DNA from: a virus
Taxonomy: Duplodnaviria > Caudoviricetes
Virus record (IMG/VR): IMGVR_UViG_3300033407_000089
Location: 1-30,048 of that record
Reading direction: 5' to 3' (one strand)
DNA: 30,048 nucleotides
Below the pieces are notes generated by a model. The model did no database searches. It worked only from the letters and a program-made list of their open reading frames with translations, and was not told the DNA's origin. The position numbers and the translations under genes are program-made. Below are positions 3,652-29,401 of the stretch, one piece after another (position 1 is the first letter of the stretch; every line of letters begins with the position of its first letter).

Positions 3652-4155
3652 TCATTCGCCGTTCTGAAGCTTTGGAAATACCTTATTGCGTAATGCTAAA
3701 ACACCCCAACCTTCGGCGCGTCCCTCAGCAGCCATGACTTGAATAACGTCTAACATACCTTGTATGACGGGTAGTGCTGTTGCGAGGTTGGTGATACCCA
3801 AAACGTCGATTTGTAACTGCTCAATGACTGTCTTGATATTGCCATCGTGCCATGTCAATCCCTGCTGGATTGTCCAATGCGCCCAGTTCGGGATATCGCC
3901 AAACGCCTGCTCTGCACCCGCTGCAATATCCAACCAACTCACTCGTACGGTATCAACAACTATTCGTGCGTCCTGTTGTTGTTGTATCGTCAGTGCTACG
4001 TTTGTGGTGATGGTTAATACGCCGTCCCTAAACGATAGGCTGCTTATCGTTGCAACTTCGTTAAGTGCAGATTGGAGTTGTGCTAAGGCCCCAATTCCAT
4101 CCGCCAATTCGACATTTTCTAATACGTATTCAGGCATTTCATTATCCCCAGACAT
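3652..4155 (-). CDS. Hypothetical tail-associated protein (possible fibre chaperone)
   Basis: 167-aa ORF directly after the fibre-like gene. Function inferred from position only. Confidence 0.5.
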   Translation of the reverse strand: MSGDNEMPEYVLENVELADGIGALAQLQSALNEVATISSLSFRDGVLTITTNVALTIQQQQDARIVVDTVRVSWLDIAAGAEQAFGDIPNWAHWTIQQGLTWHDGNIKTVIEQLQIDVLGITNLATALPVIQGMLDVIQVMAAEGRAEGWGVLALRNKVFPKLQNGE

Positions 4156-5809
4156 GACCTGTCATTGCTGATTTTAGTGTTACACTCGCGCCGTTGTCGC
4201 CAAATATGGTGCTTGTTCCGCTCTGCACCTTTTGGAGTACAGGCGCTTCGTGTTCGCCCTCGCTCGGTATTTGGTGATAGGCAAACATTGCTGTAATCAG
4301 TGTGCTTGTACCGCCGCCGCCGATGAAGGTATCGGCGGCTGAAACAGTTGTGCTATCAATTCCAACGCTGATAAACGTGCTTGCGGCGGTATTGAAGGTA
4401 TTGAAACCGCCCAATAGCCATACCTGTTTTGGACGGCTTGACTGAATGAAGCTCACTTTGTTGGAGGTCTGACCTCTTAATTGTTCGAAAGTAGTTGATG
4501 TTGTTGTCCACAAATTCGTGTCATCATGCAAGTACAGTCGCAACTGCACTTGATTGTACTCGTTTGAAATATACCGAGTCGTTGCGCTACTTTCAGTCTG
4601 TCCACTCACCCCCGTTGTGCGAATTTTACCAATCCATAACTTGGAGTGGTCACTCGCCATAACCTTTACGCCGTCCTGCGTGCCAAGTGCGGTGGCCCGC
4701 GTGGTGTCGTTTGTCCACGCCACAAATTCAAGTCGGTAATCCGCGCCGTCGTGGTAGAAAAACACATCATAAGGTGTGTTGGTGGTACTCGGCACACTCG
4801 CGCTGATTTCTTCCCACTGGTGGGTTTGCCACTCGCCAAGCGTGGTGTTAAACAGCTTGGCATACCCGGTATCCAGTGCGTTGCCGTCCTGGTCTGTCGG
4901 CGCACAATATACAGTCGTCACAGCGGTCTGATCCGCAGTCGGAGTCGGGTCGCCGGATACAGGTGTCAGTCGGCCCCCAAAGAAGCCTGCGTAGATGCCG
5001 TCGTTAGCACCGATTATTCGCGGTGCAGCGTGACGTGGCACAATGTCGGTTTTGGCAAGTTGTGTCAGTCCTTCGTGCAGGCGCACATGACCTAAACCAG
5101 CCACACCTTCGGCCACCGTGTTGACCCCACTTTCAGCAGGTCGCGGTAAAGCGGCAATATTAAATTCATCACCATCGGTGACTTGCATGGTACCTGCGAT
5201 GTCAATTCCCACCATCACATATTTGGCTTTGCCTGCGGTGACAGGTATGTAGGAAGCCAGATCGCCCAAGACTTTTTCATGGGTGTAATAAAGCGTATTG
5301 CCCACCCACCATGCACCCTCACTGACCTTGATCTCGGTGCCGTCACCCGGCATCAGTCGCAGTTCCACAACCTGCGACATGGTTACCTGTTTGGCTTTGA
5401 ATAACTCAAACTGTAGGTTGGTGGCATTACCTGCGACGGCATAACTGGTAATCGGATCACCCGGACCGATGATGGCTACATAGGGCTTACCCGCTTTACG
5501 AGCGCAAGTCACCGGAATTTCAGGTTGGTTGTTGGAATACACCAGCCCGTCCCACTCGTTGACGGCTTCGAGCACGTCGGTAGGATTATTAAAATTATCG
5601 ACCTTGCGTACAAAGAAGGTGCGAGGCAAGCTTTGTTCGGCTTGAGGCACGATAATGCGTCCGTTGCCGTCACCTAACATGGCCTCAAATTGGCCGGTGG
5701 TGCCAACTTGGCGCACCAACCGCGTGAGCGATGCTTCCAACGCCTGTTGATATTGAATCAGGGTTTGCTCAATATTTTGCACTGGCACAAGGTCACTACG
5801 CCTACCCAT
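4142..5809 (-). CDS. Tail fibre / receptor-binding-like protein
   Basis: Thr/Ser/Gly-rich, beta-type C-terminal half ('GGRLTPVSGDPTPTADQTAVTTVY...'). Coupled to the upstream tail gene by TAATG. Confidence 0.6.
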   Translation of the reverse strand: MGRRSDLVPVQNIEQTLIQYQQALEASLTRLVRQVGTTGQFEAMLGDGNGRIIVPQAEQSLPRTFFVRKVDNFNNPTDVLEAVNEWDGLVYSNNQPEIPVTCARKAGKPYVAIIGPGDPITSYAVAGNATNLQFELFKAKQVTMSQVVELRLMPGDGTEIKVSEGAWWVGNTLYYTHEKVLGDLASYIPVTAGKAKYVMVGIDIAGTMQVTDGDEFNIAALPRPAESGVNTVAEGVAGLGHVRLHEGLTQLAKTDIVPRHAAPRIIGANDGIYAGFFGGRLTPVSGDPTPTADQTAVTTVYCAPTDQDGNALDTGYAKLFNTTLGEWQTHQWEEISASVPSTTNTPYDVFFYHDGADYRLEFVAWTNDTTRATALGTQDGVKVMASDHSKLWIGKIRTTGVSGQTESSATTRYISNEYNQVQLRLYLHDDTNLWTTTSTTFEQLRGQTSNKVSFIQSSRPKQVWLLGGFNTFNTAASTFISVGIDSTTVSAADTFIGGGGTSTLITAMFAYHQIPSEGEHEAPVLQKVQSGTSTIFGDNGASVTLKSAMTGHVWG

Positions 5810-19027: not shown

Positions 19028-19582
19028 TTAAATCCTCTGCTTGAAGCGTTTGATACCGTCAATCACTGCGTCGATAAAGACGCTATATAAATCACCGAGC
19101 ATTGCCGTCACCGACTTATTGACAGGTGTCCACGTACCTTTGTGGTATTCGGCTTGCTCGGTCGCCTCGTCACCGATCACTAGTGGCGCATGGGGAACTT
19201 TTGTCCCCACGACGGCTGCTACCCCTTCGGGTATCAACTTGACATCGCTCGTCCAGCTTGCTCCTAACGTCCCTTTACGAACATACGGCACGTCAACATC
19301 GCCTGCGCCCAGTCCAGCGAAGAAACCGCGCTGCTGCTTTTCGCTGACGAAAGGACTATCAGTGATGGTGTTGCCAGCGCTGCTGACCCACTCATGAGAT
19401 TTAGACAGTGGCTTGCCCGACGGCGTGGGATACTCAGCAAAAGCCGTCTCAGCAACTACCGCCATCTTGTGAGTGGCATCGAGCGCGATGTCATCGCGTA
19501 CTACTTGCGGAAATGTCATCAGTGTTTCGAAGACTTTTTGAACATCATCCATCGTGCTTGATGCACGGCGCGATCTTCCCAT
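19028..19582 (-). CDS. HK97 gp10-like morphogenesis protein
   Basis: 'YVRKGTLGASW...VVGTKVPHAPLV' resembles the gp10 / Mu gpG-type signature (R-TG-L--S...VGTN--YA--V). Confidence 0.6.
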   Translation of the reverse strand: MGRSRRASSTMDDVQKVFETLMTFPQVVRDDIALDATHKMAVVAETAFAEYPTPSGKPLSKSHEWVSSAGNTITDSPFVSEKQQRGFFAGLGAGDVDVPYVRKGTLGASWTSDVKLIPEGVAAVVGTKVPHAPLVIGDEATEQAEYHKGTWTPVNKSVTAMLGDLYSVFIDAVIDGIKRFKQRI

Positions 19583-22500
19583 TAAGCGGCTGGTCTCCTA
19601 AAACATCGGCACTTCGGATGGGCTAACGAGGTAACGACCTTTCTAATGTCACCCGACTTACGAGGAACAATGATCGCCCACCCGGTACGGAAGTTGGCGC
19701 GTTTGCCATGAACCCGACGGCATATAGGGCATACATGTGTATCCCTGACTGTTTGCCAAATAGCTTCCTCTAGTCCGGCCCGATCCCATCTCGCAAAGGC
19801 CCCCTCATTGAATGCCCGGATCGATTCAGACTGAGAAATTGAAGTCGCCCGATTAAGTAACGCCCCTGTCGGTGTGGAGGTCGTTGCCAAGATAAAGGTC
19901 ATTTGTTGCTCAAGGCGCGGCAGCGACCAACCTTCTTCGATAGCTTTGGTGATCGCACGGCGTATCTTCTCGACCGTCGTTGTATTGATTTGACGGATAA
20001 GGCTAAAGCCATACGAACGCACGAAATCGACGGCATCTTTGGAGAACAACTCCCAATCGACATTGAGTGTTAATCCATCATCCGCCCGCGGACGGGCTGC
20101 CGTCTCTCGTTCCAGCGCCTGTTGACCGCTGGCCGCACCAGCCAGTAACACTTGACTGAGATCGGCGGGATCGTCCTTCGTACCCACCCACGCATCAATA
20201 AGGTTGGTGGTAGCCGATTTATCCCCTAAGAATTCGGGCGCAACTTCGAAGGCAGCCGCATCGCCGTCTTCAAATGCACCAATCGCCTGCTTCAGCAGAT
20301 CGCCACTGACGGCGTGCTGATACGACAGCCAGCTTGTACCGATGCCTTTTTCCAAGTCATCGAAGTTGCGCCAATAGGCTTCGTATTGCTCTGGTGTCGC
20401 CCCGATCGGTTCGGGTGGCTCGCCAGCGCGAATCCAGTTGCGAGCAACGCGGAAAACCTCTGATGGATTCCAAAAGCCGCGTAACTCGTCACGGACGTAG
20501 TTACTCAAATAGTCCGGGATGGATTTGGTGGTGAAGTCGGACTCGTGCCCATGATGTTTGACCCGGTTAAGCCATGCATTCAATTCGCTGACCACGTTGT
20601 CGGTACGTTTTGCCCGCTGCGCGATATTGGCTTCCATGTCTACACGTTTGATTGTCGCCCAGTCACCGCCGGGCTCGTCTTGACGACTGACCTCAATCGC
20701 CGTCGGCTGCACTTTAAATTTGGCCTCGAAGGGTATGAGTTTCACCTTCTGAGGGGCATAACCAATGGTGACGTGTGGCTTATACTGCGACGGCATTGAA
20801 TAGGCCGAGGGAGTCAGCCCCGCGACAACGGCAGCCTGATATAGACCATCTTGGAATTCAATCAGGTTGTTATTTTTCTTGATGCGGAAATGAATGGCGT
20901 GGTCGCCAATCTTATCGAAGCTAGCCAAGCTCCCTAAACCAAGCGATAACACTGGCGGGTTTTCAAATTGGGCGGCAGCAGCTTCTACGAAACCGCGTAT
21001 CTGGGTCATGGTCGCAACGGGTATATGCAACACTGTGACATGGAACTTATCTGGCTCTGTCCAGCGCACCTCAATGCCGCGCTGCATTAAGGTGCGCTGC
21101 AACCCAATGAGGTCAGGCTGATTTGCCAGCGACAATGTCACCGATAACTCGGTGGTGCGTTCCGGCGCTGGTTCCTCACGTTCCGCAGCGGGGGCATCGC
21201 CTGACGGCGCAGGCAGAGATGCTGCTGCTGGCGGCGGTAGTGGCGTGTTAGGCGGTTGTTGGAAATTGAGTGAGCCGAATATCGGTGGCTCGTTCATGGT
21301 ATAGGACGGATCAAGGTCGAACACATAACCGTCGGCGGTGAGGTCGGGCGGTGCACCAATGTCAACTTGCGCCTGCGACCGCTTTATCAACCCGGCCTGA
21401 AATGCGGCAATGGCATCGTCCGGGTTACGCTTGACAACGATTTCGATAGTCTGTCGCCCGGTATGTTCCCGGCCCTCGTTATAGGTCCATAACCCGGACT
21501 CGACATTATCGCGTGCCAATTGGCTGCGGTCGGAGGTGGCGTACAGGATGCTATCAATCTCGGAACGATCAAGAATCAACTGCATCGGCGCATCGAGTAG
21601 CGGGAAGTCCTTCTTGACCCATTGCTCGTTGAGAAAGCCCAAGATCAATTTAGCCCGCGGGATGCCTGTATATTCGGTGAATGTACTAATGATCTGACGA
21701 TAGGTGTTCTGGGACGAGAGTGCATCGGCGGCGACTGATAGACCCACCATGACCGGATCGACATTAAATGCCATCAGCGTTTCGCGATTGAGCATACTCT
21801 CGAAGTCAGTCATCGCCAGATCAGCCGGTGATGCCTGAATCGGTTCCCAACGCCATTCACCTGTTGAGTTTTGACTGGCGACGATCAGCGTCTTAAAAGC
21901 GTTGCGCGAACCTTTAAGCTCTTTGAGGTCTTGCTCGACCTTCGTGATTTCATCTTCGTTGACCACCCCACCCGAAAAGGTCAACAAGCCGTCGGGTCGC
22001 GTGCCATTAATGAAGAATGACTCGGCATACCGGATCAAGTTGTACTTGGCATTGATCTGGTGCATCACCACTTCAAATGGCGATACGCCGTCATTAAGCA
22101 CCAGTGGGTTAAACAGATGCCCGAAAATCATATCCTGTCGGGGGATTTCTTCCTGACGGCCAAAAATCCGAAAACTCGCAATATGATGCTTGCCGTCGTG
22201 GTAGTAGGTTCGCAGTGTCACATCAAGCGGATTGATCCATTCAAGCTGCGATGGGAACCCGTGTCGGTTGCGAACCTTACGAAGAAAGAACTTGCCCCAG
22301 ATTAGGAGACTAGCCTCAATCCACCACATAAACTGGACAGACTTCGCGATGAATGTATCCAACGGGCTATGCTCAAGTGGATTGCGATCCATATCTGCCG
22401 CGATGATAGGCAATTGCGAAACGTGGGTCGCCCGCACATTGAGGGCTGCCCATCCAGTCACCCCTGCTGAGTACGCAGCAGCAAGGACGGCATCCGAGTA

Positions 22501-22683
22501 CCCATAGGCATTACTCAGCTCGCTGCGCCACGCACTGGCGACGGCATTGCGTGTACTGTGCAGCGGGACGGCTTCTTGACCCGCTCGCAGGATATAGGCC
22601 TCAGGCGCGTAATACCGTGCGACGACTTGACTGGTTGACGCAGGTGGCGCTGCTCGGACGTTTTCGTGTGTGTCGTATGGCAT
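19582..22683 (-). CDS. Portal + 2H phosphoesterase + MuF (minor head protein) fusion
   Basis: aa ~60-420 is an HK97-family portal ('LLIWGKFF', 'LEWINP', 'GVSPF', 'FFINGTRPDG', 'FNVDPVMVG', 'TYNEGRE'). A Pro/Ala linker is followed by two HxT motifs (H548 'FHVTV', H637 'PHVTI'). The C-terminus is MuF-like ('SESIRAFNEG...WQTVRDTHVCPIC...AHPKCRC'). Confidence 0.88.
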   Translation of the reverse strand: MPYDTHENVRAAPPASTSQVVARYYAPEAYILRAGQEAVPLHSTRNAVASAWRSELSNAYGYSDAVLAAAYSAGVTGWAALNVRATHVSQLPIIAADMDRNPLEHSPLDTFIAKSVQFMWWIEASLLIWGKFFLRKVRNRHGFPSQLEWINPLDVTLRTYYHDGKHHIASFRIFGRQEEIPRQDMIFGHLFNPLVLNDGVSPFEVVMHQINAKYNLIRYAESFFINGTRPDGLLTFSGGVVNEDEITKVEQDLKELKGSRNAFKTLIVASQNSTGEWRWEPIQASPADLAMTDFESMLNRETLMAFNVDPVMVGLSVAADALSSQNTYRQIISTFTEYTGIPRAKLILGFLNEQWVKKDFPLLDAPMQLILDRSEIDSILYATSDRSQLARDNVESGLWTYNEGREHTGRQTIEIVVKRNPDDAIAAFQAGLIKRSQAQVDIGAPPDLTADGYVFDLDPSYTMNEPPIFGSLNFQQPPNTPLPPPAAASLPAPSGDAPAAEREEPAPERTTELSVTLSLANQPDLIGLQRTLMQRGIEVRWTEPDKFHVTVLHIPVATMTQIRGFVEAAAAQFENPPVLSLGLGSLASFDKIGDHAIHFRIKKNNNLIEFQDGLYQAAVVAGLTPSAYSMPSQYKPHVTIGYAPQKVKLIPFEAKFKVQPTAIEVSRQDEPGGDWATIKRVDMEANIAQRAKRTDNVVSELNAWLNRVKHHGHESDFTTKSIPDYLSNYVRDELRGFWNPSEVFRVARNWIRAGEPPEPIGATPEQYEAYWRNFDDLEKGIGTSWLSYQHAVSGDLLKQAIGAFEDGDAAAFEVAPEFLGDKSATTNLIDAWVGTKDDPADLSQVLLAGAASGQQALERETAARPRADDGLTLNVDWELFSKDAVDFVRSYGFSLIRQINTTTVEKIRRAITKAIEEGWSLPRLEQQMTFILATTSTPTGALLNRATSISQSESIRAFNEGAFARWDRAGLEEAIWQTVRDTHVCPICRRVHGKRANFRTGWAIIVPRKSGDIRKVVTSLAHPKCRCFRRPAA

Positions 22684-23514: not shown

Positions 23515-23949
23515 TTACAAGCTTCTGAACTTTTTGCACTCCGTGCAATCTGAAGACGGCCCGCGGTAGTCCCAACGATAGAACAAGGGCGGCTGGACTA
23601 CCGCGGCGTTATATGCTTCAATCCCTTGCTTCAGTGTATCAACGTGGATTTTCGTCCACGGATCAATCCATACAAAGCCTTCCGCATCTGGGTTGAAACG
23701 AAGGGTATATTTGACCCCGTCTAGCTCGACAGGCAACATCTGTCTGTCCATACGAACAGCAGACGGCAAATGCTTGTCACCTGCTATGTCAACAGGGGGG
23801 AATTTTTGCCCCCCTGTTGATTGATCACCCCTCGCAAATGCGACCCCTGACGACTGTCCAAAATCGCGGCGAGTACGTATCAAATTCCACAGGACAGCAG
23901 CCACCAAAATGATGATAAATGTGGCAACTCCAAAATAGACAACGGGCAT
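23515..23949 (-). CDS. Hypothetical protein with an N-terminal TM and C-terminal CxxC
   Basis: Start reassigned to ATG 23949 (MPVVYFGVATFIIILVAAVLW), just after the stop of the 23954..24193 ORF. Confidence 0.6.
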   Translation of the reverse strand: MPVVYFGVATFIIILVAAVLWNLIRTRRDFGQSSGVAFARGDQSTGGQKFPPVDIAGDKHLPSAVRMDRQMLPVELDGVKYTLRFNPDAEGFVWIDPWTKIHVDTLKQGIEAYNAAVVQPPLFYRWDYRGPSSDCTECKKFRSL

Positions 23950-24207: not shown

Positions 24208-25776
24208 CTATACTAAACGGCTAATGATCTTGGTTCTGAACTGGTCACGGAAGGCTAATAGCACCGCGTCTCCACAGTCGGTCGAACGACCGATGCGTTT
24301 CTTGATGTCCTCTTTAGATTCGACTGCATATTTACCGCCCTGCAACTTATAACGCGGCGTACACAGATCGACCCGTAACTCCCGATCCGGCGGTAAAGCG
24401 ATGTTTTCACCACTCTCTGGATCCAGCATCTCGCGGAACTTCCAGAAGGTTTCCGAGCGCAGGTTCACAAACTCGAACATGCCGCTTTTATCCCGCATGG
24501 TCGATTTGGACCCGTTGTTTACTGAGATGACCGTGACACCCTTGACCGCTTTGAGTTGGTCATAAGCCGAGGCCCCATACCCCACGCCATCAATGTAAAT
24601 CTTGGCACCCGGCTCGTGGGCATCCAGCACGTACTTGGCCGTTGTCGGGCCGTCAGGCGTGGCTGTGCCCGGATACTTGATCAGGCGGTCGACATAGTTG
24701 CCGTAGAGCGGCGCGATTACTGTTTGATCTTGTCCGCCATAAGCAACGTCGACACCCAGCGCACGCTGGGCAACATCGGGGCGTTCTGTTCCCAACGCTT
24801 CACAAAGGGTGTGAATATCCTCCCAGCGCTTTTGGGCCAACCGTACCCACTCGGTCGGGATGACCTGCCACTGGTCATCATCCAGACCAATACCGAAGTC
24901 GCCATACAACAACTGAGATCGTAATGGTTCGCCCAGCGATTGCAACACCGACTTGTAACCCGTGGCCAGATAAATCGGGTTGTCATCAATACGGGCTGGA
25001 ATGAACGTTCGACTGCGCGGATAGATCGTTTCAACGATTGTTTGACCGCCGCGTTCAATCTCAAGTTCAAACGGCTCTGCGCCGTCAACTTCGGTGTCCA
25101 CCCCGTCGATACGAGTGAACCAGCGCAGCTCACCGGGTTCGGCAGGATTAGGATGTTCCGGGTTGAGCCACGGACCCCAATACTCGATGACCCATTCACC
25201 CTCGACATCCGACGGCGGGTTGCCCGTGCAGATAATACGGGTGCGTTGTCCGGGGATCGGCGTTCGTAACCACCCCGATAGGTACAGATACATGTCAAGT
25301 GTAAAGTGTGTGATCTCGTCGAAACCTTTGAGATCGTGTGCTCGACCCTGATACTTCCGCACATCTTTAGGATACTCGCTCCCGCCCCACTCCAACATGC
25401 GTTGACCGGGTATATCTCGCCACACATAATCTGAGCCGTTGTAACGGGCCGTTGAGCCGTCGAGCACATCGCGACTATCGTCAATGAGCTGACGCAATTG
25501 TGTAAGCTCACGACGGAAGATGATTGATCGCCGGTGCTGAGTGCTGGCCGCCCCTAAGAGTAACCAACTTTTACCGCCACCGGCTGCCCCGCCGAAAAAC
25601 AATTCATCGGCTTCGGATTCGAGAGCGGCTACCTGCGGGCCGTCGAGGGGTTGCCATAGGTGCGACCCGCTAAATTGTTCGAATAAATCGTCGACGACTT
25701 CCGCGGCGACCGCGACTAAATCAGGTTTCGGATTCTTCGCCACTAACCGTCTGCCCAAGAAGAACCTGCTTGGCAC
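24208..25776 (-). CDS. terL: Terminase large subunit
   Basis: Q-motif 'PLDGPQ', Walker A 'FGGAAGGGKS', Walker B 'GFDEITHF', coupling motif 'CTGNP', and RNase H-like nuclease 'LGVDVAYGGQD...STDCGDAV'. Alternative GTG start at 25743. Confidence 0.95.
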   Translation of the reverse strand: MPSRFFLGRRLVAKNPKPDLVAVAAEVVDDLFEQFSGSHLWQPLDGPQVAALESEADELFFGGAAGGGKSWLLLGAASTQHRRSIIFRRELTQLRQLIDDSRDVLDGSTARYNGSDYVWRDIPGQRMLEWGGSEYPKDVRKYQGRAHDLKGFDEITHFTLDMYLYLSGWLRTPIPGQRTRIICTGNPPSDVEGEWVIEYWGPWLNPEHPNPAEPGELRWFTRIDGVDTEVDGAEPFELEIERGGQTIVETIYPRSRTFIPARIDDNPIYLATGYKSVLQSLGEPLRSQLLYGDFGIGLDDDQWQVIPTEWVRLAQKRWEDIHTLCEALGTERPDVAQRALGVDVAYGGQDQTVIAPLYGNYVDRLIKYPGTATPDGPTTAKYVLDAHEPGAKIYIDGVGYGASAYDQLKAVKGVTVISVNNGSKSTMRDKSGMFEFVNLRSETFWKFREMLDPESGENIALPPDRELRVDLCTPRYKLQGGKYAVESKEDIKKRIGRSTDCGDAVLLAFRDQFRTKIISRLV

Positions 25777-26230
25777 GATACCTTGTCAGTGCCAACTGCA
25801 AGAAGTCACCAATATGCTGTCCATTGGCTTCCATGACGGCTTGCAACTCCATGAGATACTGTGTCGTCTCATCCGTTAAGCCCAACTTGAGGACTTCAGG
25901 CTCGTTGAGACCGTACAATTTGATCTCTTGTTCATTGAGCTTCAACCAGCGATCTACTGCCATAAAGTTACCCTGCATCACCATATGGGCAATCGCTAAC
26001 CGCGCTACATTGATGCGTTCAGCCATCAGCCGTCGATACTGCTCGGCCGTCGCCGCCTCTTGTTTATTGAGTTGGTCAAGTGCTTTTTTTACATCACTCG
26101 CCGCCGTCGTGTGGGTTACCCCTAGCGCCTCGCCGATATCCCGATACGACGCACCACGCTTGCGAAGCTCCAAGGCCTTAACGCGCCGCTCGGTGGCGTT
26201 CAATTTGATCGCATCACTTCGTTTGCCCAC
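25721..26230 (-). CDS. terS: Terminase small subunit (HTH)
   Basis: HTH 'ALELRKRGASYRDIGEALGVTHTTA'. Overlaps the terL start. Confidence 0.75.
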   Translation of the reverse strand: MGKRSDAIKLNATERRVKALELRKRGASYRDIGEALGVTHTTAASDVKKALDQLNKQEAATAEQYRRLMAERINVARLAIAHMVMQGNFMAVDRWLKLNEQEIKLYGLNEPEVLKLGLTDETTQYLMELQAVMEANGQHIGDFLQLALTRYRAKQVLLGQTVSGEESET

Positions 26231-26248
26231 TACCCGGTGTAAACCTTT

Positions 26249-27049
26249 CTATAAGTCAAGTTGGTAGGCCTGCAGGCCCATATCAGTTAGTCGTTGCAAG
26301 ATGACGGCAACATAAGCCGGTGACAATTCCATCCCGTACCCGGTGCGTCCCAGTTGCTCACAAGCCACCAAGGTTGTCCCCGTGCCACAAAATTGATCCA
26401 CCACGCCGTCGCCGCGGTTGCAAAAGTTTTGAATCACCCACGTCGGCAGATGCAATGGAAACGTCGCCGCATGAACATCGGCGAATTCATTATGTGAATT
26501 ACCAGCCGCCATGTAAACATTCGACACCGATCCGCGGGCAAAACTAGCCGTCTGGATCGCTCTGCTCGGCTGATCGCCCTGCCCGAATAGATACATGAAC
26601 TCAAACTGTGAATTCATGACTTGCTTACCCATCGCCGGTGCAGCATTCGTTTTATGCCAGACGGCCACATCGGCAAAGTGATCGCGGAAATGGTGAAGGT
26701 AGTCGATGAGTGTCCGTTTGTTGCCCGCCACACTCTGAATATTGACGATGGCGTATTGGCAATGGCGCAGCGCCTGCGTCGTAAACCCGATCAATAGCTT
26801 CAAATAATCCCCATCGGTCAGGTTGTCATCGTTGTTGACATATTTACTGGCCGCACCATCAGGCTGGCTATTGAGATGTGAACTCTCGCCAACGTTATAA
26901 GGTGGTGACGTGAAGGCAATCGCGGGCGACTCATAGGCAACAAGGGTGTTCATATCGGCAGGACTCGTACTGTCACCGCACATGAGACGATGAATACCAT
27001 CACTCGTGCGACTGAGGATCTCCCAGACTTGACCCGGCTCGACACCCCA
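26249..27049 (-). CDS. DNA N4-cytosine/N6-adenine methyltransferase, beta class (catalytic portion; 5' part lies in another frame)
   Basis: 'AFTSPPYN' (motif IV) precedes 'HAATFP' and 'DQFCGTGTT' (motif I). The frame continues upstream of ATG 26983 as WGVEPGQVWEI...HRLMCGDST. Confidence 0.85.
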   Translation of the reverse strand, partial: WGVEPGQVWEILSRTSDGIHRLMCGDSTSPADMNTLVAYESPAIAFTSPPYNVGESSHLNSQPDGAASKYVNNDDNLTDGDYLKLLIGFTTQALRHCQYAIVNIQSVAGNKRTLIDYLHHFRDHFADVAVWHKTNAAPAMGKQVMNSQFEFMYLFGQGDQPSRAIQTASFARGSVSNVYMAAGNSHNEFADVHAATFPLHLPTWVIQNFCNRGDGVVDQFCGTGTTLVACEQLGRTGYGMELSPAYVAVILQRLTDMGLQAYQLDL

Positions 27050-27420
27050 CGGGCCCGTAACTCGTCGGCCCGATCCGTTTGCGGACCCACATCCTCGCCA
27101 GTCGCCGGCACGACGGTTATATCAACTCCGGTTTGCGCTGCGACGGCTTTGACCAGCTCGCGGCGTTCAAGGTTAAATGAACCTCGCACCAAACGGTGCG
27201 TGCCGTCGTTATCCGTTTCGATATCGGTCTGCCAGTCCACACCAATTACCTTCCATACCGAAAATTTTTTCCCGTAAATACTTTCGGCAAGGTATCGCTC
27301 TGCGTCGTCGTAAGTAGCAAACACGCGACTACCCACGCCCTTGATGGTTTTTCCACCACGAGCAGCGGCTTGCGCGATAGCCATCTCGCAAAGTCTGGTA
27401 TTGGTAATTAGGTAAGTCAA
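26950..27420 (-). CDS. Hypothetical ORF, probably the N-terminal part of the methyltransferase gene
   Basis: Overlaps the stop of the upstream gene (TTGA). Its '...PQTDRADELRA' segment runs naturally into the MTase frame if one base is restored near 27050. Confidence 0.55.
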   Translation of the reverse strand: MTYLITNTRLCEMAIAQAAARGGKTIKGVGSRVFATYDDAERYLAESIYGKKFSVWKVIGVDWQTDIETDNDGTHRLVRGSFNLERRELVKAVAAQTGVDITVVPATGEDVGPQTDRADELRARGVSSRVKSGRSSVARVMVFIVSCAVTVRVLPI

Positions 27421-27806
27421 CCCGATCTCCCAAGCAACTTGCGTGCCTCCCTGACCTTGGTCGGGGAGGCGCAGACGATTCCCGAATCGACCATTGCGGT
27501 TGCGATGACATCCGGCGACCGCAAGAACTTCTCTTTACTTGGCGGATAATAATATGTGCCGTCGGGTTCCAGACGATTTGCAATCTCCTGTACGTCGTGC
27601 TGGAACTGCTCGACAATGGAAAACTTACGAGGGGATCGCGACACATCAATGATTTCCGTCGGCTCGTCAACCCGGCGGAGTAACTGGGACTCGACTTCGC
27701 GATAAGTGTCTTGTTTGCCGCTAAGATAGTTCAAGACGGCATAAAGCCACTTGATGTTCTCAGGGGGTACTGCATTCCCATGTTTGTCAACAATAGTGGT
27801 TTTCAT
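27417..27806 (-). CDS. Hypothetical protein, first gene downstream of promoter P2
   Basis: 129-aa ORF. No clear SD. Confidence 0.65.
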   Translation of the reverse strand: MKTTIVDKHGNAVPPENIKWLYAVLNYLSGKQDTYREVESQLLRRVDEPTEIIDVSRSPRKFSIVEQFQHDVQEIANRLEPDGTYYYPPSKEKFLRSPDVIATAMVDSGIVCASPTKVREARKLLGRSG

Positions 27807-27943
27807 ATAGGCGTGTGTATAGATTCGCTTGGGGTCTATTGAATCGCTGCTGCGCTAACAGCGTGTGGGTGTGAAGCGCATGTGGTCAATTGGAGCAGAG
27901 ATAGGGGGTCAAACGAAGCTTTTTTCAGTCGGGCTTAAAAAAC

Positions 27944-27972
27944 AGTATATCAGCATAAATGTTCTAATGCAA
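27944..27972 (-). promoter_or_regulatory. Sigma70-type promoter P2
   Basis: -35 TTGCAT (27972-27967), 17-bp spacer, extended -10 TGaTATACT (hexamer 27949-27944). Confidence 0.75.
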
Positions 27973-27982
27973 CTGCTCCAAC

Positions 27983-28010
27983 AAAAAACCCCCGCTGGCC
28001 GACGAGGGTT
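27983..28010 (-). terminator. Intrinsic terminator closing the putative small RNA
   Basis: AACCCTCG-TCGGCCAG-CGGGGGTT followed by TTTTGTT. Confidence 0.75.
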
Positions 28011-28118
28011 CGTTCCTATCTCAAGTCCGACTACTGCCTGATCAGGCTGACAGAATAACTTCCACTCACCTGCTCCTAGTGACCACCACCAAGGTTCAGG
28101 CAAGGCTCCATCAAGCCT
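27983..28118 (-). ncRNA. Putative ~136-nt structured small RNA of unassigned family
   Basis: Bounded by promoter P1 and a terminator. 5' hairpin AGGCTT/GAGCCT, closing stem TGCCTGA/TCAGGCA, and internal hairpins. No convincing ORF. Confidence 0.6.
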
Positions 28119-28124
28119 ATGCAT

Positions 28125-28153
28125 ATTGTAAGACATACTTGAGTCTAGCACAA
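28125..28153 (-). promoter_or_regulatory. Sigma70-type promoter P1
   Basis: -35 TTGTGC (28153-28148), 17-bp spacer, -10 TACAAT (28130-28125). The predicted +1 is A28118, the first base of the 5' hairpin. Confidence 0.6.
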
Positions 28154-28169
28154 GGTTTCTAGGTTGGGA

Positions 28170-28201
28170 GAAACAGGTCGGCAAAATTACCGACCTGTTT
28201 C
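28170..28201 (-). terminator. Terminator-like hairpin after parB
   Basis: Perfect 12-bp stem gaaacaggtcgg/ccgacctgtttc beginning 4 nt after the parB stop. Confidence 0.8.
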
Positions 28202-28204
28202 AAT

Positions 28205-29401
28205 CTACTTGAGCGATTCCTTGAGCAGCGCAAGGTTGCGAATCGCAAGGTCAATGTCCTCTAACAGCTTTTGCCTTACCGAATCATCAACATTATATGC
28301 ACCTTGTCGCATCTTGGTTATGTTACGAAGGGCACGTGATGCTGGACCTGTCAGGATCGAGTCGCCTTGTTGCCACACGGGACGGCGTAACTTTCGCGCA
28401 TTCTCACCTTTGTCTACCGTAGAAATTTCTACGGTATAACCAGCAGCAACGTTTGCCAACTCAATTAAGGTCGAGTTGTCGCCCCTTGACTCTTGTACTA
28501 AGCCTTTGACAACACCATGCGACCAATTAAAATCGTCGGCAATCTGCCATACCTCGTCGGGCAACCTAAGCAGTGCTCGATACTCCCGAATCATCTGCGT
28601 ACTTGACAAACCCGTTGCTTGTAGCAAATCTTCACCCTTGCCTCGCGGAATTCGCCACTTGTTGCCATCCGACACCTGTGCATAAAATTCTCGATCCGAG
28701 CCGTCGGCACTCACCGCCTCATGATAAGGTTTAAAGTTATCACGACCGATTAGCTCCATAATTAGAATAGCGAGCTGGCGTGCCTTGCCAATCGCATTGA
28801 GGTCATTACGAGCCGTGTTCTCGGTCGCTTGCCGCCAGATGTCGTGTTGTGGAACCTCGCGGGCTGGTATCCGCAGCCAGTCGTTGCCGCCATACCAGAA
28901 GTTGAGCAAGTGGTAGGCGAACCAGCGCCGCTCGCCCGTCTCAAGTTGATACAACTCACCATCCGGGACAACGGTGATCGGGTTGGTCAACCCTTGCCGA
29001 TGAATAGACGAAGCAAGTTGTATCAGCCCAAGTAGAACCGTTTCAAATGGGCCACACTCGTATTCATCATCCCGAATGTCCGTGCCGGCATTCATGAAGC
29101 TACCGAGATCAAAGTTGCTGCCGCGCTCACCGCCGATCAGTTGTATCCAGTAATCGAATATATCCGACAACGTTTCAGGGTTGCCATTCCACTGAGCGCG
29201 TATCACCGACGGCAATACCCGTCGCGGCTGAGATCGATCCGGGACAATCGCAAAAATATCCACTGGCTCGACCGCAATGTACCCGGCAGATGCTTGCTCA
29301 ATCTGATCCATGATACCACTGCTGTAGATTTTCTTATCAGTCTCTCGTAGCGTATCGCCTTCTTCATCCCGTTTAGCATACCGGTTACGCTTGCTGCTCA
29401 T
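28205..29401 (-). CDS. parB: ParB-family partition protein (CTPase)
   Basis: 'SQPRR', 'LASSIHRQGLTNPITV', arginine patch 'ETGERRW' and 'ENTARNDL'. Coupled to parA by ATGA. Confidence 0.9.
   Translation of the reverse strand: MSSKRNRYAKRDEEGDTLRETDKKIYSSGIMDQIEQASAGYIAVEPVDIFAIVPDRSQPRRVLPSVIRAQWNGNPETLSDIFDYWIQLIGGERGSNFDLGSFMNAGTDIRDDEYECGPFETVLLGLIQLASSIHRQGLTNPITVVPDGELYQLETGERRWFAYHLLNFWYGGNDWLRIPAREVPQHDIWRQATENTARNDLNAIGKARQLAILIMELIGRDNFKPYHEAVSADGSDREFYAQVSDGNKWRIPRGKGEDLLQATGLSSTQMIREYRALLRLPDEVWQIADDFNWSHGVVKGLVQESRGDNSTLIELANVAAGYTVEISTVDKGENARKLRRPVWQQGDSILTGPASRALRNITKMRQGAYNVDDSVRQKLLEDIDLAIRNLALLKESLK
28415..28436. promoter_or_regulatory. Perfect 22-bp palindrome within parB, candidate parS
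   Basis: taccgtagaaa|tttctacggta is fully self-complementary. The parS role is inferred. Confidence 0.55.

Follow-up and report, generated by a model that had tools for sequence, protein, structure and literature searches.

The CA RNA of phage N15 and the CI RNA of phage P4 are grouped together as small RNAs that pair with a leader through several separate segments. CI is processed from a primary transcript, and its targets lie both upstream (seqA) and downstream (seqC) of it (PMC4825925). The C4 RNA of phages P1 and P7 is cut by RNase P from the transcript of its own target, and its b′ loop covers the ribosome-binding site (PMC5320573); further features of C4 and CI used for the comparison below were taken from PMC8201110. 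IsrK, encoded in the Salmonella prophage Gifsy-1, has its own terminator and lies upstream of a regulatory gene, on whose leader it acts in trans (PMC4825925). In E. coli, tisB/IstR-1 and dinQ/AgrB each consist of a LexA-controlled message with a long leader and a neighbouring small RNA complementary to it far from the start codon, and IstR-1 acts on tisB by blocking a standby site that is distant from its start (PMC4147584). It has also been reported that host LexA boxes occur in phage promoters leading to lytic functions, such as promoter P1 of GIL01 and those of LexA-controlled antirepressors, for which no small-RNA layer is mentioned in the part of that account drawn on here (PMC4551915).

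The locus described here shares features with each of these systems. If functional, it would work like IstR-1, IsrK or C4, yet it belongs to none of these families. With the balance lying close to even, it is probably a lineage-specific trans-acting antisense RNA directed at an SOS-controlled leader, whether the effect is repression or activation.

The window (i.e., the whole stretch of DNA analysed) is a virus record of 30,048 bases from soil, and its minus strand carries parA, parB, methylase, small terminase, large terminase and portal genes. The stretch is present in three soil runs (probable DNA runs, from two studies), the contigs of which are identical inside the interval. The top homologues of ParB are 39–49% identical to it, several of them being named from Anaerolineae/Chloroflexota, and 14 of the 15 genome loci of ParB homologues are titled Anaerolineae, Phototrophicaceae, Chloroflexota or a bacterium without a name. 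From the parA/parB module and these titles it is inferred that the host is likely an Anaerolineae bacterium (Chloroflexota) and that the phage is likely temperate. The features are as follows, in the order in which the minus strand is read:

28205..29401, minus strand: parB (398 aa), following parA; partition module, recognised by homologues
28170..28201, no strand: 32-bp palindrome following parB, either terminator or DNA-binding site (z −7.65)
28148..28159, minus strand: LexA-like box 1, GAAA-CCTT-GTGC, covering the −35 of P1 (rank 3 of 60,070)
28125..28153, minus strand: predicted promoter P1, TTGTGC-17-TACAAT, modest (rank 64 of 60,040)
27983..28118, minus strand: predicted 136-nt small RNA (z −1.81)
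28070..28086, minus strand: block A, the first 5 nt being the predicted loop of hairpin 28095–28075
28009..28032, minus strand: blocks B, C and D, 24 contiguous nt right before the terminator
27983..28011, minus strand: intrinsic-terminator-like hairpin (28011–27986) with U-run, from the terminator scan
27973..27981, minus strand: block E, repeating the 3′ half of A in sense orientation, directly adjoining the −35 of P2
27944..27972, minus strand: predicted promoter P2, TTGCAT-17-TATACT with TG extension (rank 1 of 60,040)
27953..27964, minus strand: LexA-like box 2, GAAC-ATTT-ATGC, within the spacer of P2, with the 2+12+3 register seen in host lexA promoters
27882..27938, minus strand: 5′ part of the P2 leader with targets B′, D′, C′ and A′, C-rich and G-poor
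27807..27885, minus strand: conserved 3′ leader element without Shine-Dalgarno (SD) sequence
27417..27806, minus strand: ORF129, phage protein family without a name, candidate regulator, mostly helical model
24208..27420, minus strand: DNA methylase (split reading frame), small terminase and large terminase, downstream genes

Several observations concern the neighbouring genes themselves. A perfect palindrome lies at 28415–28436 within the 3′ coding part of parB, and palindromes with arms of at least 8 bp occur in 23 of 36 distinct homologous segments and in 0 of 36 control segments from the same genes (loci L007–L051; the 36 are what remained of 45 loci once duplicates and short or incomplete entries had been removed). 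The palindrome has a different sequence from phage to phage, and in some loci (L028, L033) it is also seen again outside parB; it is likely each ParB's own parS site written into its gene. Around 27050, the methylase region contains the ORFs 27420–26950 and 26983–26249, and since the methylase-like sequence starts in another frame than the upstream ORF, the gene looks split by a frameshift; no insertion or deletion is listed there in the contigs of the three runs.

The two promoters of the interval had been proposed in an earlier note, which was made from the letters of the window alone, and they fare differently. A hexamer matrix and a box motif were trained on recA/lexA loci from genomes of the order of G003; by this matrix P2 comes first in the whole window, but P1 is placed only modestly, and a generic sigma-70 scan found neither. 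An unseeded motif search in 68 distinct host recA/lexA upstream regions gave GAAC-N4-GT(T/G)C, which we take to be the Gram-positive type of LexA box; no paper on an Anaerolineae version of this box was found in the literature search. Among the recA/lexA loci L104–L177, the right half GTGC occurs in 24 of the 72 pattern-matched LexA-type boxes of this order, and the box keeps fixed promoter registers there, namely 5+12+0 at recA and 2+12+3 at lexA.

Both promoters carry an imperfect version of the box. Box 2 stands in the same register as in 9 of the 13 lexA promoters listed and is weak in score: its box-only value of 6.0 (training, 14.1) is reached by 109 of 60,040 positions and by 2 of the 300 best promoter-like sites; its motif score of 9.1–9.4 (ranks 8 and 10) is below the training 10th percentile of 12.1, and its right half ATGC is found in 0 of the 72 pattern-matched sites. 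Box 1 scores 11.9 against the same percentile and lies ahead of an alternative extended −10 (28147–28142) in the recA register of 7 of the 8 promoters listed; box and alternative −10 together rank first, and the box-only score is equalled or beaten at 5 of 60,040 positions. The promoter in this register has no −35, and the A at position 4 of box 1 occurs in 0 of the 68 training sites. Since both boxes are imperfect and the P2 box has the lexA register, SOS (LexA) control is likely for P2 and possible for P1. The small RNA itself may be off in the lysogen, because box 1 outscores box 2.

The predicted small RNA would fold into a 5′ hairpin, a three-way junction, a single-stranded segment with B, C and D, and the terminator. 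The inner terminator that had been read between this RNA and P2 was recovered by the terminator scan. As for the other terminator, read upstream of P1, the palindrome at 28170–28201 does exist, but its U-run is short and a look-alike is found inside a gene at 23789–23820, so that it may be a protein-binding DNA site rather than a terminator. Both palindromes are 32 bp long with 12-bp arms and have the outer 6 bp and an AT-rich 8-bp centre in common. The Rfam comparison that had been suggested for the interval yielded no match for the small RNA, nor was any found in the window with gathering and E-value thresholds, up to E 10; the 91-codon frame 28184–27909 has no Pfam match. Two other identities were rejected. 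An invertible switch between A and A′ left no joint in the contigs of the three runs (contigs drop rare forms), and for a box C/D or TIGR-like guide RNA the motifs can be seen by eye, the flanking stems form no k-turn, and no Nop-domain protein was identified among the 14 ORFs scanned in the window.

The four complementary blocks that had been claimed between the small RNA and the P2 leader were found at their coordinates with the pairing as claimed: A (28086–28070 with 27898–27882) at 15 of 17 positions, B (28032–28021 with 27938–27927) with 10 Watson-Crick and one G-U pair of 12, C (28022–28015 with 27905–27898) at 8 of 8 and D (28014–28009 with 27917–27912) at 6 of 6. Among them, A, B and C were also listed by an independent repeat search. 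A fifth block, E (27981–27973), which had been missed, is complementary at 9 of 9 positions to 27898–27890. The longest perfect run between small RNA and leader is 8 nt, and the 24 contiguous nt of B, C and D all match within the first 40 nt of the leader. In the folding model, the GUGGU seed of block A is a hairpin loop and block B is accessible on both the RNA and the leader side, with net energies after opening costs of −9.1 kcal/mol for B and −4.0 kcal/mol for the half of A that lies in the loop. Block D (net +6.4) and the 3′ half of A (net +2.2) are buried in this model.

Whether such pairing exceeds chance depends on the measure. The cofold against shuffles that had been proposed is not significant at full length (136 × 131 nt, −16.6 kcal/mol; 166, 71 and 45 of 300 shuffles equally good). 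With the first 60 nt of the leader it reaches −22.7 kcal/mol, which beats leader shuffles (0 of 300; 1 of 563 for the best of 5 windows) and natural 60-mers (0 of 1624 as good), but with the small RNA shuffled instead, 54 of 1028 do as well. Perfect 6-mer coverage in a 60-nt leader window is equalled by 1 of 5000 shuffles (104, 124 and 1142 of 5000 at k = 5, 7 and 8), the colinear chain score by 0 of 600, and block A by itself by 21 of 3000. When the same geometry is slid over the window, one other place of 5948, a coding one, equals the coverage; within the window the RNA finds its best 60-nt target in the P2 leader, though only just, at 44, with three other 60-nt windows at 40. These statistics were picked once the blocks had been seen, and the observation came from a scan of many windows. 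As to base composition, 47 of the 136 nt of the small RNA are G, and the leader tract 27911–27866 holds 20 C and 5 G in 46 nt. From the shuffle outcomes across the cofold, coverage and chain tests it follows that the complementarity is above chance and that part of it is due to composition.

An incidental pairing has to be weighed at this point. The locus would then be an SOS-controlled promoter region followed by a conserved SD-less leader, and the blocks would reflect a G-rich RNA lying next to a C-rich leader, or descend from an ancient inverted duplication at this place. The full-length cofold, the RNA shuffles, the near-equal windows, the coding position and the post hoc choice of statistics all speak for this, as does the conservation of the leader solely in its non-target part, described below. 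Independent promoter and terminator signals delimiting both partners argue the other way, together with the 6-mer clustering, the chain score and the concentration of 24 contiguous nt of the RNA on the 5′ end of the leader. On balance we regard it as unlikely, though deserving real weight.

The gene behind the leader, ORF129, stands before terS-terL here and in both homologous loci, L180 and the prophage-like region of genome G076. Its family has 18 representatives, one of them named from an Anaerolineae assembly. The protein of 129 aa is non-hydrophobic and has no significant Pfam, PHROG, PDB or fold match, known antirepressors included; in its model (pLDDT 81.4, pTM 0.54), the last two helices resemble a helix-turn-helix on visual inspection only. 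In L180, which has the closer homologue (39% to a near relative), the gene lies directly before terS, terL and portal; in G076 it is followed by a 230-aa gene, terS and terL. No SD is found at ORF129 or at its L180 homologue.

The last 79 nt of the leader agree with L180 4004–4082 at 64 of 78 positions with 2 gaps (0 of 1000 shuffles), and the coding DNA, much less conserved, at 231 of 328 with 88 gap positions. Two alternative, mutually exclusive helices can be drawn in this part, 27880–27875/27856–27851 and 27863–27859/27849–27845, each with one double change in L180, which in two sequences is no proof of structure; the conserved element could be an RNA switch, or equally a DNA site such as a late promoter. 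Repeated ACACGC-like motifs are seen in the 79 nt of both sequences. The 5′ target part, which stops 76 nt ahead of the AUG of ORF129, is not conserved in L180 (202 of 1000 shuffles), and L180 has no P1 RNA (777 of 1000 shuffles), no P2 and no LexA-like box; the small RNA binds its leader at just −3 to −8 kcal/mol. Thus the conserved core, as read from these alignments, is the SD-less 3′ leader with ORF129 ahead of the packaging genes, and in this phage a set of predicted elements stands before it: a pair of promoters, a LexA-like box on each, an RNA with a terminator, and the targets of that RNA. L180 also has two long hairpins followed by a U-run at 4130–4213, where the intergenic region starts (whole region z −3.2), possibly an unrelated small RNA or terminator. 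In the window, 19582–22683 encodes one 1033-aa protein in which the portal is fused to a 2′-5′ RNA ligase-like (2H) domain and a Mu gpF-like domain, and the portal-like protein of L180 has a C-terminal extension of similar look.

The conservation that had been expected of the RNA-target pair was seen in neither ORF129-homologue locus. Searches by blastn and nhmmer in 51 loci found no homologue of the pair; 5 and 382 genomes gave short matches only, and phages and plasmids gave no genuine homologue. A 15-nt pattern had 12 matches, all unrelated, and a gapped A..A′ pattern had 0 matches in viral contigs; a leader pattern matched 13 of 201 genomes, close to the reversed control and none of them with ORF129. 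In open-licence literature, no paper joining Chloroflexota/Anaerolineae prophages with LexA and a small RNA was found.

Set against the described systems, the locus is close to tisB/IstR-1 and dinQ/AgrB in its likely LexA-controlled message, long leader and neighbouring complementary RNA. Unlike them, however, the two genes are in tandem and not divergent, the complementarity is in four short blocks instead of one 21-nt block, the target is a 129-aa phage protein instead of a small hydrophobic toxin, and the promoter of the RNA may itself be LexA-controlled. A type I toxin-antitoxin pair was rejected on account of the non-hydrophobic protein, the tandem genes and the shortness of the longest perfect run. 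With IsrK it has in common, by sequence prediction, a short RNA with its own terminator and complementarity to a downstream leader; the differences are that a separate strong promoter makes the target, that no upstream ORF coupling was found and that the phylum is another. There is also no Rfam match, ORF129 is not recognisable as an antirepressor, and predicted binding lowers the accessibility of the initiation region from 0.80 to 0.68 in the folding model, which is contrary to the opening expected of IsrK.

As with C4 of P1/P7, a likely temperate phage with ParAB carries a predicted structured RNA with short separate blocks, one of them, A, having its 5′ half in a predicted loop. A C4 antisense RNA was nevertheless rejected: no C4-type Rfam match exists, no ribosome-binding site is covered, and the RNA is apparently not cut from the target transcript, a promoter and terminator of its own and a separate target promoter being predicted. 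The likeness to P4 CI lies in the multipartite leader pairing and in premature termination as a possible outcome, with which the C-rich tract and a host Rho are compatible only; CI was rejected as well, for the target is downstream only and no upstream target appears among the inverted repeats or best targets. The earlier note had proposed an RNA-based lysogeny, immunity or late-gene control by analogy with C4 and CI. A trans antisense role does fit the anatomy of the locus, but the C4/CI-type immunity reading fails on the points just given.

For the preferred trans-acting antisense RNA, the form that we put forward tentatively is a two-layer lock on the waking of the temperate phage, in which LexA represses P2 and the P1 RNA damps leaked P2 transcripts. 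Since P2 carries a likely LexA switch, the small RNA would likely be a second lock. Host LexA would repress the strong predicted promoter P2, and the predicted 136-nt RNA, if made from P1 and stable, would bind the first 57 nt of those P2 transcripts that leak through; block B would capture the leader as it emerges, at +1 to +11, and the pairing of block A would start from the GUGGU loop. The duplex would cover a single-stranded pyrimidine-rich tract 76–131 nt before the AUG, likely a ribosome standby site for the SD-less ORF129, and the untranslated C-rich RNA would be ended by Rho (present in 5 of 5 host-order genomes tested) or degraded, so that methylase and terminase expression would also be cut. 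DNA damage would free P2, whose output would outrun the RNA and thereby set a threshold. As the start region is not opened by predicted binding, repression is favoured over structural activation. In favour of the lock are the cofold with the first 60 nt, the place of the P2 leader as best target, the energies of B and of the loop half of A, the first rank of P2 with its box in the lexA register, the lack of an SD at ORF129 and its L180 homologue, the Rho of the host order and the precedent of IstR-1 on tisB. Evidence against the repressor lock is that no homologous pair was found in the loci, genomes and contigs searched, that the small RNA binds the L180 leader weakly, that the full cofold is not significant, that the RNA shuffles include equally good ones, that block D and part of A are buried, that box 1 outscores box 2, and that both boxes fall below the 10th percentile of training.

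If box 1 works, RNA and target rise together, and IsrK-like activation becomes as natural as repression. In such an activator, DNA damage would co-induce RNA and target, and expression would need both boxes vacated; the RNA would shield the 5′ end through block B and mask the C-rich tract from Rho. Box 1, which ranks first together with the alternative −10 in the recA register, is in keeping with this, as are the C-rich tract and the Rho of the host order, and IsrK, likewise in a prophage, activates a downstream message in trans (PMC4825925). The A at position 4 of box 1, the missing −35 in that register and the lack of a predicted gain in start-codon accessibility weigh against it, and so does a 5′-3′ leader pairing at chance level (107 of 1000); we take an activator to be rather unlikely. 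A more specific version, quite unlikely in our estimate, is an RNA-coupled SOS gate of Chloroflexota phages not described before, in which the first of two tandem LexA-controlled promoters would make a licensing RNA that must grab the nascent 5′ end to license the SD-less leader and the lytic-regulator family behind it.

The blocks may be regarded as DNA instead. Block A is a 17-bp quasi-palindrome with both mismatches within the 5-bp centre, its motif occurs exactly twice in the window, about 30–55 nt past each predicted start, and E adjoins the −35 of P2; A and A′ could thus be sites at which a dimeric phage regulator, be it ORF129 or a repressor, binds; E would be a half site, and B, C and D would be chance. 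But these last three blocks are then left unexplained, neither L180 nor the 40 kb surrounding the G076 prophage contains the motif, and structural comparison matched the ORF129 model to no known DNA-binding fold, so that we consider such sites improbable.

Finally, the late operon of phage lambda has the layout promoter, short RNA and terminator at pR′/tR′, and the P1 RNA might similarly be a cis attenuator or antitermination element, its blocks pairing only in read-through transcripts. In G076 (L099 1917–2160; G076:C5), a terminator-like hairpin, a consensus LexA-type box (rank 4 of 79,974) and some 100 nt that contain small hairpins stand ahead of the ORF129 homologue; another terminator-like hairpin comes directly before its SD, so expression would need read-through. 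The leader there shows a weak colinear likeness to nt 1–83 of the small RNA (16 of 2000 shuffles, local), and three sub-threshold Rfam hits were taken as chance. We hold this reading very improbable, since 2 of 3192 windows, both at unrelated places, exceed the local score, the global alignment does not reach significance (185 of 2000 shuffles), the G076 interval has no host-type promoter by the hexamer matrix, and the targets, being downstream of the terminator, could not prevent termination in cis.

The LexA-like boxes, the rank of P2 and the conserved 3′ leader are additions beyond the earlier note. Two leads can be tested regardless of the role of the RNA, namely the ORF129 family and the conserved leader that lacks an SD. 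If the antisense reading is true, a host DNA-damage repressor and a phage small RNA would act together on one leader, an arrangement arisen independently of C4, CI and IsrK, and it would show how the decision to wake is made by phages of Chloroflexota, a phylum whose phage biology has been little described.
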